53,744 nt of DNA from a virus (taxonomy: Duplodnaviria; Heunggongvirae; Uroviricota; Caudoviricetes). A program made the translations under genes and the position numbers. Shown one piece after another: positions 48,559-49,757 of this stretch. The notes beneath the pieces are model-generated. The model saw nothing but the letters and a program-made list of their open reading frames with translations. It was not told where the DNA came from and searched no databases. The stretch covers positions 1-53,744 of IMG/VR virus record IMGVR_UViG_3300026549_000042. The stretch is one strand, 5' to 3'. Within the stretch, counting starts at the first letter, position 1. Every line of letters begins with the position of its first letter.

Positions 48559-49467
48559 ATGATTTGCGAAAATTGTGGTAAAGAACATGATGGAGGTTAT
48601 GCATCTGGAAGATTTTGTTCTAAAAAATGTGCTCATTCTTATGTTACAAAGTATGATAATAAAAATGAATTAAAGGAATCTAAATGTATTGATTGTGGGA
48701 AATTAATATATATAAATAAAAGATCATCTAATAAATGTAGATGTGATAACTGTCAAAAAAATCATATTATGCCATCACAAATTAAAATATGTTCTATTTG
48801 TGGTAGTACTTATATTAAATCTGATGGTTGTAAAAATGAATTTTGCAAAAATCATAATTGGCAACAATTTAAATCTTTAATAAAATATTTTGGATTTGAT
48901 AAAACAAAATTAGGTACATTAGAAGTTGAAAATGAATTTAATAGAATTAGAGATATATTATATGATTTATATTGGAATAAACAATTAAGTGCAAGTGATA
49001 TTGGTAAAATTTATAATTATAAAAATTCACATAATATTATTCAAAAAATATTTAATTTTTTAAATATTCCAACAAGAAATTGTAAAGAATCCATAATTAA
49101 TGCATATTTACAAGGAAAAATGAATCTAATTAATAATGTTTATGGATATAAAGATTGTTGGCATATAACTTGGAATAATAAAGAAGTTTATTTAAGAAGT
49201 TCTTATGAATTAGATTATGCTAAAGAACTTGATAAACAACAAATTGATTATAAAGTTGAATTTAAACATATAAAATATTGGGATTCACAAAAACAAGAAT
49301 ATAGATGTGCAATACCTGATTTTTATATTCCTAAAGATAATATGATAGTTGAAATTAAATCATCTTGGACGTTAGATAAGCAAAATATGATAGATAAAAA
49401 ACGAGCATATTTAGACTTAGGATATAAATTTAAATTAATTTGCGACCACAAAGAATTAGAAATATAA
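48559..49467 (+). CDS. Free-standing endonuclease (N-terminal Zn ribbons, C-terminal PD-(D/E)XK, TnsA-N-like)
   Basis: CENCGKEH...FCSKKCA; YLRSSYELDYA...IPDFYIPKDNMIVEIKS. Ends 4 nt before the intron-containing tRNA. Confidence 0.78.
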   Translation: MICENCGKEHDGGYASGRFCSKKCAHSYVTKYDNKNELKESKCIDCGKLIYINKRSSNKCRCDNCQKNHIMPSQIKICSICGSTYIKSDGCKNEFCKNHNWQQFKSLIKYFGFDKTKLGTLEVENEFNRIRDILYDLYWNKQLSASDIGKIYNYKNSHNIIQKIFNFLNIPTRNCKESIINAYLQGKMNLINNVYGYKDCWHITWNNKEVYLRSSYELDYAKELDKQQIDYKVEFKHIKYWDSQKQEYRCAIPDFYIPKDNMIVEIKSSWTLDKQNMIDKKRAYLDLGYKFKLICDHKELEI

Positions 49468-49471
49468 TATT

Positions 49472-49757
49472 GCTTCGGTAGCTCAGGGGCAGAGCATCTG
49501 ACTGTCTTTTTAATGGCAGCTCTTCATGGAAACATGTTAGATGAAAATTCCGCTAATTCGGTGAATTTAGTATTTCGTGTAAGTACTGTGACGCCGAGCT
49601 AAATCAAGGTAAAACTTGTAAATGTGTACAGACTATAGACGGAACACCTAAACAAATTGCATGGTGATAACATAGTCGAGACAGCAACAGAAATGGTCTT
49701 AGTGATAAGATGCTGTATGTAATCAGAGGGTCGGGATATCGTAATTCCCCCGAAGCG
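49472..49757 (+). tRNA. trnN: tRNA-Asn(GUU) split by an intron at 35/36 (exons 49472-49505, 49720-49757)
   Basis: Joining the exons gives GCTTCGG...TCTGA-CTGT|TAA-TCAGA...CCGAAGC-G73. Confidence 0.88.
49506..49719 (+). mobile_element. ORF-less group I intron (214 nt)
   Basis: P1 CTGT|C with GGCAG, U.G at the 5' splice site; P3 TTCCGC/GACGGAA; P4 TTCGGT/GCCGAG; P7 CAGACTA/TAGTCG; P8 CACC/GGTG; P9 ACAGCA/TGCTGT; terminal G. Confidence 0.9.

Follow-up and report, generated by a model that had tools for sequence, protein, structure and literature searches.

The four classical types of tRNA group I intron belong to subgroup IC3, and the number of tRNA settings in which group I introns are known from bacterial assemblies has been raised from 4 to 21 (Williams 2020, bioRxiv 10.1101/2020.01.27.920355). 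The seed alignment of that study includes Pam37.Asn.4Ug, Mpe6.Lys.4Ug and Mba143.Tyr.4Ug, where 4Ug corresponds to position 35/36 in the numbering of the paper. The phage group I introns known by 2014 were all located in protein genes (Hausner et al. 2014), and the only published phage tRNA introns that we found are the unclassified 'enigmatic' introns of the Lak megaphages, which are 79–114 nt long, tRNA-like, inserted at position 37/38 of tRNAs for Phe, Gly, Thr and Tyr, and reported with 'no hit in rfam' (Devoto et al. 2019, PMC6784885). In this work we analyse a stretch of 53,744 nucleotides (hereafter the window) that forms the first 53.7 kb of a 142-kb viral record of IMG/VR (IMGVR_UViG_3300026549_000042; estimated completeness 50%). 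Its tRNA array contains a tRNA-Asn(GUU) gene split by a group I intron that lacks an open reading frame (ORF), and immediately upstream of this gene lies a free-standing nuclease gene, P0001. The explanation that we favour, with moderate confidence, is that two independent selfish elements reside at the same site of a tRNA array in a large phage of gut or rumen.

The intron of the window resembles the 4Ug class in its placement between bases 4 and 5 of the anticodon loop, the U at position −1, the terminal G, the compact ORF-less form and, at the level of the family, the same three isotypes. The likeness is one of insertion site and isotype, and the 4Ug introns were catalogued in assemblies labelled bacterial, whereas the family of the window occupies the tRNA arrays of huge phages. 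The intron is a new phage-borne member of the catalogued 35/36 class of tRNA introns; the first-pass annotation of the window had pointed to a class of 35/36 tRNA-Asn introns, which Pam37.Asn.4Ug shows to exist. With the classical IC3 introns (the cyanobacterial and plastid tRNA-Leu(UAA), Azoarcus tRNA-Ile, Agrobacterium tRNA-Arg and tRNA-fMet introns) it shares the anticodon-loop location, a length of about 200–250 nt, helices P1–P9 without large extensions, a GAAA loop L2 and a receptor-like loop in P8. It differs from them in isotype and position, and the IC3 resemblance is one of layout. The Lak 'enigmatic' introns are similar in that they occur in tRNA genes of related giant gut phages; the identity of our intron with them was considered and rejected, since the Lak introns are shorter, tRNA-like, inserted at 37/38 and found in no tRNA-Asn.

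The nuclease invites comparison with a different set of systems. SegB of phage T4 is a free-standing endonuclease encoded within the tRNA cluster. It recognises a 27-bp site that contains the conserved T-arm motif and ensures that tRNA genes nearby are inherited; its homologues occur together with tRNAs of many isotypes, which they can amplify. The nuclease family described here resembles SegB of T4 and T6 as a free-standing gene between phage tRNA genes of many isotypes, and in its mode of action it matches SegB as far as sequence can tell. It is unlike SegB in combining a PD-(D/E)xK domain with zinc fingers instead of a GIY-YIG domain, and in being known from sequence alone. In the descriptions of SegB that we consulted, no mention was found of a stereotyped ORF end at or inside the 5' end of a tRNA. 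For F-CphI with the psbA intron of cyanophage S-PM2 and for MobE with the nrdB intron of T-even phages, the cut site was shown to be the intron insertion site, whereas the two elements of the window are mostly found apart. Another precedent is I-Ssp6803I, encoded inside the tRNA-fMet group I intron of Synechocystis (cited in Hausner 2014). Like it, the window nuclease is a PD-(D/E)xK-type enzyme tied to a tRNA anticodon-loop intron; unlike this small, intron-encoded protein, it is free-standing, 302 aa long and equipped with zinc fingers. I-Ssp6803I was not among the best 50 Foldseek matches of the window protein.

The anatomy proposed by the first-pass annotation was borne out. ORF and tRNA coordinates place the nuclease stop codon (last base 49467) 4 nt before the tRNA; ARAGORN, the splice-rule placement and the Rfam model RF00028 taken together give a tRNA-Asn split at 35/36 by a 214-nt intron; the core helices P1–P9 are all present, with no ORF above 29 aa on the intron's own strand and a 55-aa TTG frame on the opposite one; and the neighbouring gene has an intact PD...ExK motif together with matches to PHROG endonuclease families, as befits a free-standing nuclease. 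The locus therefore has the layout of collaborative homing, an ORF-less intron and a free-standing endonuclease gene beside the interrupted gene. The same annotation had suggested such a partnership and had named co-occurrence in relatives as one of the checks to be made. The distribution of the two elements does not support it.

Related loci (L-numbers) were obtained by pattern-seeded scans of IMG/VR and of Joint Genome Institute (JGI) metagenomes; intron relatives were identified by exact-pattern scans with the P7/J8-7 core and then with a covariance model, R1, built in this analysis. The nuclease contexts were surveyed in 29 loci with near-full-length family members, and in only two of these, the window and L043, is the adjacent tRNA interrupted by an intron; in L021 and L037 an intron is located about 1 kb away, in another tRNA. 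The closest available homologues (L014 and L005 at 60% identity, Lak-A2 at 57%) gave no nearby R1 match even with the filters off. In L007 and L008 an open, motif-intact nuclease gene reads into an intronless tRNA-Asn. From the side of the intron, seven distinct intron-bearing tRNA-Asn loci had sufficient upstream sequence (the window, L043, L101/L146, L111, L138, L107 and L112/L144), and the nuclease is present upstream in the same two. A tRNA-Ala precedes the intron-bearing tRNA-Asn by 18 nt in L101 and by 9 nt in L112, with no nuclease in between; the Asn–Met order of the window is also found in L101, where the nuclease present in the window and L043 is absent. No nuclease match occurred in the 723–1,270 nt of upstream sequence examined in L111, L138 and L107, and none of the Lys and Tyr introns has the nuclease immediately upstream. 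Finally, a full-length nuclease was found at none of the 80 viral loci (0/80) whose tRNA-Asn has the same anticodon arm and no intron. The intron and the nuclease are therefore largely independently distributed, an outcome that the first-pass annotation had itself named as refuting the partnership.

A group I intron downstream of the Lak-A2 and Lak-B1 nuclease homologues was also looked for and rejected, as neither a group I match nor any other credible Rfam match was obtained there; these regions look structured by eye, and R1 with the filters off gave no match in them.

The closeness of the nuclease to the tRNA proved to be a property of the nuclease family. Its genes were always located between tRNAs in the loci examined, and in 15 of the 29 the stop codon is at most 6 nt ahead of the next same-strand tRNA or up to 29 nt inside it. 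These tRNAs are specific for Thr, Met, Trp, Gln, Leu, Arg, Gly, Phe, Val and Asn, and almost all are intronless, so the 4-nt gap of the window is a family trait independent of the intron. In eight loci the tRNA itself supplies the stop: a TAG at tRNA positions 8–10 (L007, L008, L014 and L044), a D-loop TAA (L022, L024 and L026) or an anticodon-stem TGA (L018), and in L007 and L014 the tRNA encodes the last residues of the protein. Upstream, the start codon lies 43–1310 nt after the preceding tRNA and never closer than 43 nt. In the maximum-likelihood tree the window protein belongs to a supported clade of 12 that contains all Asn-adjacent members (Shimodaira–Hasegawa-like approximate likelihood ratio test, SH-aLRT, 97); three Leu-adjacent members cluster as well, and so do two Val-adjacent ones. 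The isotype changes 11 times on this tree, against 14.2 in shuffles, and none of 500 shuffles was as low. Since kin share labels, this statistic shows only a tendency of lineages to keep an isotype.

Other features were noted at the junctions of individual relatives. The tRNA entered by the 60%-identical nuclease of L014 (3403–3476) has an Asn-like body, a mutated anticodon loop (called Thr AGU by ARAGORN) and an acceptor stem with two mismatches, and is possibly a decayed tRNA-Asn. In Lak-A2 (L001) a 63-nt tRNA-like element, which ends in CCA, has no D arm and has a non-canonical anticodon loop, follows directly after the nuclease stop (3927–3990), and a further ~230 nt (3990–4225) end in the T-arm-like GTTCGAATCC; neither part received an ARAGORN, Rfam or R1 call. 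Relative to the window, L013 (178–322, equivalent to about 3287–3431 of L043) has a 138-nt insert exactly between the nuclease stop and tRNA-Asn. Closed by a 7-bp terminal inverted repeat (TAATGAG...CTCATTA) and folding far better than shuffles (z −3.4), the insert is a candidate for a miniature inverted-repeat element or for a small structured RNA.

Judged by covariation among relatives, the insert in the tRNA-Asn gene is a real group I intron. The match to RF00028 is full-length, with 43.5 bits and E values of 6e-10 (local search) and 4.6e-11 (142-kb record). The U49505·G pair in P1 and the terminal G49719 are retained in all eight relatives compared. In the covariation set of eight related introns we scored helices P2–P8; the pair counts exclude P1 and P9, because MAFFT misaligned P1 and the Tyr-type P9. 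Across P2–P8, including the P3/P7 pseudoknot, 88% of cells are paired, compared with 33–42% when the partners are slid by 1–3 columns, and 15 of the 37 pairs show compensatory changes, a number that 0 of 500 shuffles reached. For example, P3 reads UUCCG/CGGAA in Asn hosts and UCUCC/GGAGA in Lys hosts, and P8 changes from CACC/GGUG to UACC/GGUA and UUCC/GGAA among the relatives. The layout is compact, with P2, no P5abc, a short P9, the GAAA loop of L2 and the receptor-like loop in P8, as in known tRNA introns; in the Tyr-type relatives a shorter P9 stands immediately before the terminal G. The P8 loop of the Lys intron of L043 has the form CCUAAG...UAUGG, which we take to be the 11-nt tetraloop receptor. 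The anatomy and the covariation are observed directly, and splicing is inferred. A second weak RF00028 match is located in the same viral record outside the window (G000:C1:66737-66857 (-); 18.5 bits, E 0.0015).

The interrupted gene is easily misread. Default ARAGORN and Rfam at its gathering threshold both missed it; with introns allowed, ARAGORN reported a split tRNA at 49472–49758 with a 214-nt insert but named it Thr(GGU), because the insert was set one base too far 5'. Only the placement 49505|49506...49719|49720 conforms to group I introns in having a U ahead of the 5' splice site and a terminal G, and it gives the 7-nt loop CUGUUAA of Asn(GUU), split CUGU|UAA at 35/36; the spliced product is tRNA-Asn(GUU) by ARAGORN. 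This gene is the sole tRNA-Asn of the 142-kb record. Its exons are identical or nearly so to those of L043, exon 2 being identical. The T arm of the split gene (49734–49750, GGGAU-AUCGUAA-UUCCC) has A54 and U58 swapped, so that both members of the 54–58 pair are exchanged, and U–U at 53–61; the same is seen in L043, and the T arms of the other intron-bearing tRNA-Asn genes are normal.

In L043 as well as in L096, position 35/36 of tRNA-Lys(UUU) is occupied by nearly the same ribozyme; in L011 and L103 a more distant relative has this position in tRNA-Tyr(GUA). The guide differs with the host, pairing as GGCAG with exon CUGU in Asn, GGAAG with CUUU in Lys and UGCAG with CUGU|A in Tyr; this was taken straight from the junction sequences and not from the MAFFT alignment. 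Weaker R1 matches were found in genes that ARAGORN calls as split Arg(UCU), Ile, Met and Leu(UAA) tRNAs. The family thus appears to radiate among the anticodon loops of giant gut and rumen phage tRNAs, with the guide retuned to each host. At least four introns of this kind are present in the 95-kb IMGVR_UViG_3300021256_002164, and the window holds no further R1 intron even with the filters off. An exact-pattern scan of 185,579 species genomes returned six places, one of them a true intron by R1, on a 410-kb scaffold. This scaffold, ONIZ01000001.1 (L146), was deposited as 'uncultured Firmicutes bacterium RUG343'; it and L101 (IMGVR_UViG_2799112330_000002) are each 410,106 bp long, score 242.6 bits each with R1 and carry the same intron-bearing tRNA-Asn with tRNA-Ala upstream. 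ONIZ01000001.1 probably represents a huge phage that was mistaken for a bacterium in binning.

Some of the weaker matches may also be listed. R1 matches of 52–67 bits in L138 (2789–2987), L146 (2885–3079), L133 (1094–1285), L096 (12847–13065) and L021 (4362–4536) sit in genes that ARAGORN calls as split tRNA-Leu(UAA), tRNA-Met(CAU) and tRNA-Ile(UAU), and these phages may also carry the classical Leu(UAA)-type setting. In L075 and L078 a weak R1 match (2798–3026; 19.6 bits, E 0.008) comes right after a short match to the nuclease C-terminal domain.

Among 27 homologues of the nuclease protein no variation was seen at P253, E265 and K267, and at least 90% of them retain D254; the middle part of the protein is helical. 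PHROG endonuclease and Holliday-junction resolvase families match residues 196–295 with E values of 5e-9 to 8e-5. The AlphaFold2 model has a mean predicted local distance difference test (pLDDT) score of 85.7, with the C-terminal domain near 90, and its Foldseek matches, all weak (E at least 5.6e-3), are mostly to PD-(D/E)xK proteins: RecE, TnsA, Vsr, the catalytic domain of I-Bth0305I and T7 endonuclease I. With moderate confidence, the motif and this model place the nuclease in the PD-(D/E)xK superfamily. The search with phmmer against PDB sequences gave no match, and Pfam none apart from PF24308/DUF7487, which scores 20.2 bits for P0001, under the cutoff of 27. No GIY-YIG domain was matched in Pfam or PHROGs; together with the PD-(D/E)xK fold matches this makes the protein an analogue of SegB and not a member of its family. 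There are 778 homologues at E ≤ 1e-3, all unnamed, the best being 91% identical, and many have a precomputed PF24308/DUF7487 match; the named phages with relatives of the gene are Prevotella Lak megaphages only (Lak-A2 57% and Lak-B 42% amino acid identity). Some contigs have two copies of the family.

The first 31 residues of the nuclease are 74–87% identical to the N-terminus of an HNH endonuclease in L011. Since this N-terminus recurs on an HNH enzyme, the zinc module looks like a DNA-binding module shared between different catalytic domains, as is typical of free-standing homing endonucleases. The L011 gene (3001–3612, 203 aa) starts 63 nt after an intron-bearing tRNA-Tyr and has an open frame only with three TAG codons taken as sense; similar N-terminal matches are found about 100 nt downstream of the Tyr introns in L124 and L136. 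By analogy, our preferred reading of the nuclease is a homing-type endonuclease acting in tRNA arrays, which would work like T4 SegB with another fold; the distribution of the family is observed, and from it and the SegB precedent we infer DNA cleavage and homing.

The coordinates of the features of the locus are collected in Table 1. The tRNA array extends from 45.4 to 50.9 kb of the window and comprises 16–17 tRNA genes, one of them reading UAG; the standard code keeps the long ORFs of the window open. In the spacer upstream of the nuclease, TAAGTTTG matches the Bacteroidota −7 consensus TAnnTTTG and may be a promoter element; the motif is not kept at the corresponding position in the other loci of the family. 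A 33-nt motif ending in GAGAGTTACTTCAT is repeated three times between the tRNAs of the window (46569–46601, 46969–47001 and 50129–50161), and a similar string comes after tRNA-Met in L013.

Table 1. Positions of the nuclease gene, the split tRNA-Asn gene and the structural elements of the intron in the window
Feature	Positions	Strand	Details
Spacer from tRNA-Val(UAC) to nuclease start, 81 nt	48478..48558	+	TAAGTTTG match 22 nt before the ATG
Free-standing nuclease gene P0001, 302 aa	48559..49467	+	ATG 48559, TAA 49465-49467
N-terminal CxxC zinc-finger module, residues 1-100	48559..48858	+	Invariant C3, C6, C20, C24, C78, C81, C91, C96
C-terminal PD-(D/E)xK-type domain, residues 198-302	49150..49464	+	P253, D254 (49318-49320), E265 (49351-49353), K267 (49357-49359)
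Spacer TATT from stop codon to tRNA +1, 4 nt	49468..49471	+	
tRNA-Asn(GUU) gene	49472-49757	+	Split by the 214-nt intron
tRNA-Asn exon 1 (positions 1-35)	49472..49505	+	Last base U35, pairs with G in P1
ORF-less group I intron, 214 nt	49506..49719	+	Terminal G 49719; RF00028 43.5 bits; R1 259 bits
P1	49502..49519	+	Exon CUGU and intron C (49502-49506) with guide GGCAG (49515-49519); U.G at the splice site
P2 hairpin, GAAA tetraloop	49525..49536	+	97% of cells paired
P3	49548-49552 with 49640-49644	+	4/5 pairs with compensatory changes; encloses P4, P5 and P6/P6a
P4	49558-49563 with 49592-49597	+	3 compensatory pairs
P5	49568-49573 with 49583-49588	+	Poor alignment, 57% of cells paired
P6/P6a	49598-49599 with 49624-49625; 49605-49608 with 49615-49618	+	
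P7 pseudoknot	49631-49636 with 49672-49677	+	Sequence almost invariant; encloses P8
P8	49645-49648 with 49663-49666	+	2 compensatory pairs; CCUAA...AUGG receptor-like internal loop
P9 hairpin	49678-49682 with 49696-49700	+	Followed by a 19-nt tail up to the terminal G
tRNA-Asn exon 2 (position 36 to discriminator G)	49720..49757	+	Unusual T loop AUCGUAA instead of UUCGAAU

If the locus does hold two independent selfish elements, its history may be pictured as follows. The intron at 35/36 of tRNA-Asn(GUU) would remove itself by two guanosine-dependent transesterifications, leaving what is presumed to be a working tRNA, and its family would have spread among the anticodon loops of huge phages (Asn, Lys and Tyr, with distant members in Arg, Ile, Met and Leu) by retuning of the guide. 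Members of the nuclease family would have inserted with the end of the ORF flush against a tRNA 5' end or running into it, their lineages mostly keeping one isotype, which in that of the window is Asn. The adjacency seen in the window would then arise because both elements live in tRNA-Asn, with no mutual dependence, and if the nuclease provokes gene conversion the intron, some 40 nt away, would be carried along passively. The intron begins 38 nt from the nuclease gene; break-induced repair that copies this gene would therefore almost certainly copy the intron as well. Such co-conversion is plausible and would be passive hitch-hiking, with no need for the intron to protect its own genome.

Several observations weigh against this explanation. 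No cleavage, homing or splicing is known for any member of either family. The RF00028 match misses membership by the gathering score (43.5 versus 50 bits), which is why a default Rfam scan is silent on the intron; a large multi-locus Rfam run also overlooked the near-identical intron of L013, so silence on big inputs is uninformative. The minimum free energy (MFE) of the intron as a single sequence is no better than that of shuffles (z −0.28), and the evidence for the fold is therefore comparative. The locus sample is pattern-seeded, and the contexts of the closest nuclease homologues (70–91% identical) lie outside it. All Asn-adjacent nucleases fall into one clade, and the nuclease may thus target tRNA-Asn. 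Between the window and L043, an island of 73–100% DNA identity covers the final 300 nt of the nuclease gene, the tRNA and the intron, with flanks at about 50–65%. Joint mobilisation would leave such an island; it could be a gene-conversion tract or could reflect constraint on the catalytic domain and two functional RNAs.

The last two observations, along with the 38-nt distance between the nuclease gene and the insertion site, also speak for collaborative homing, in which the nuclease would cut intronless tRNA-Asn at the insertion site, the intron would protect its own genome and the pair would spread together. Recipients exist, as viral contigs abound in tRNA-Asn genes that have the same anticodon arm and neither intron nor nuclease. 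We nevertheless regard such a partnership as unlikely: a nuclease accompanies only two of the seven intron-bearing tRNA-Asn loci, the intact nucleases of L007 and L008 abut intronless tRNA-Asn, the closest IMG/VR and Lak homologues (57–60% identical) have no intron nearby, and the family adjoins ten other isotypes that are intronless. It is quite unlikely, in a more elaborate version, that the DUF7487-like nucleases are tRNA-gene homing endonucleases that integrate at tRNA 5' ends, often borrowing the stop codon, and that the 35/36 intron was recruited as immunity in the Asn lineage, which would make the two the first collaborative-homing pair in an RNA gene. The nuclease could instead have been domesticated by the phage as a tool for breaking its own tRNA array and amplifying or reshuffling it, for instance to outrun tRNA-targeting host defences, as with SegB in T6. 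That SegB brings about segmental tRNA-gene amplification, that the family is large, keeps its catalytic residues and is present in more than one copy on some contigs, and that duplicated tRNAs and tRNA look-alikes occur in the arrays would all agree with such a role; its patchiness among related phages, its variable neighbours and the truncated N-terminus in L043 fit a selfish element instead, and domestication appears very unlikely to us.

The stereotyped junction can also be viewed as a device for expression, the tRNA acting as an RNase P 3' processing signal of the nuclease mRNA and the adjacency saying nothing about the DNA target; where the tRNA contains the stop codon, processing would leave the mRNA without a stop and keep the enzyme at a low level. 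The eight loci whose stop comes from tRNA positions 8–10 (TAG), the D loop or the anticodon stem are in line with this, as is the strict asymmetry of at least 43 nt upstream against at most 6 nt or an overlap downstream. The tRNAs of these arrays are, however, only 3–8 nt apart anyway, and a cassette whose 3' edge is the ORF end would look alike; the idea, which we hold to be even less probable than domestication, is moreover compatible with two independent elements and does not exclude them. As for the intron, it might have decayed, with splicing lost and the split tRNA-Asn reduced to a pseudogene. The sub-gathering Rfam score, the unusual T loop and the unremarkable MFE point in this direction, but the core sequences and all helices are retained with compensatory changes across hosts, the exons in L043 are identical or nearly so, the T-loop change exchanges both 54–58 partners, and the phage record has no other tRNA-Asn. 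Decay is accordingly an extremely improbable explanation.

The window and about 30 related loci show a radiating family of true group I introns in the tRNA anticodon loops of giant phages from gut and rumen, and the retuning of the guide from host to host offers a clean natural case of ribozyme retargeting. For annotation, the consequence is that default tools miss or misname such tRNAs, as ARAGORN does here by skipping the gene by default and calling it Thr when introns are allowed. Of the two elements, the nuclease family, whose genes stop right at a tRNA 5' end or within it, is less expected and the better lead; P0001 opens the way to a large uncharacterised family that hugs these ends. If these nucleases are homing endonucleases, they would help to explain the shuffling and inheritance of phage tRNA arrays, as SegB does in T-even phages.

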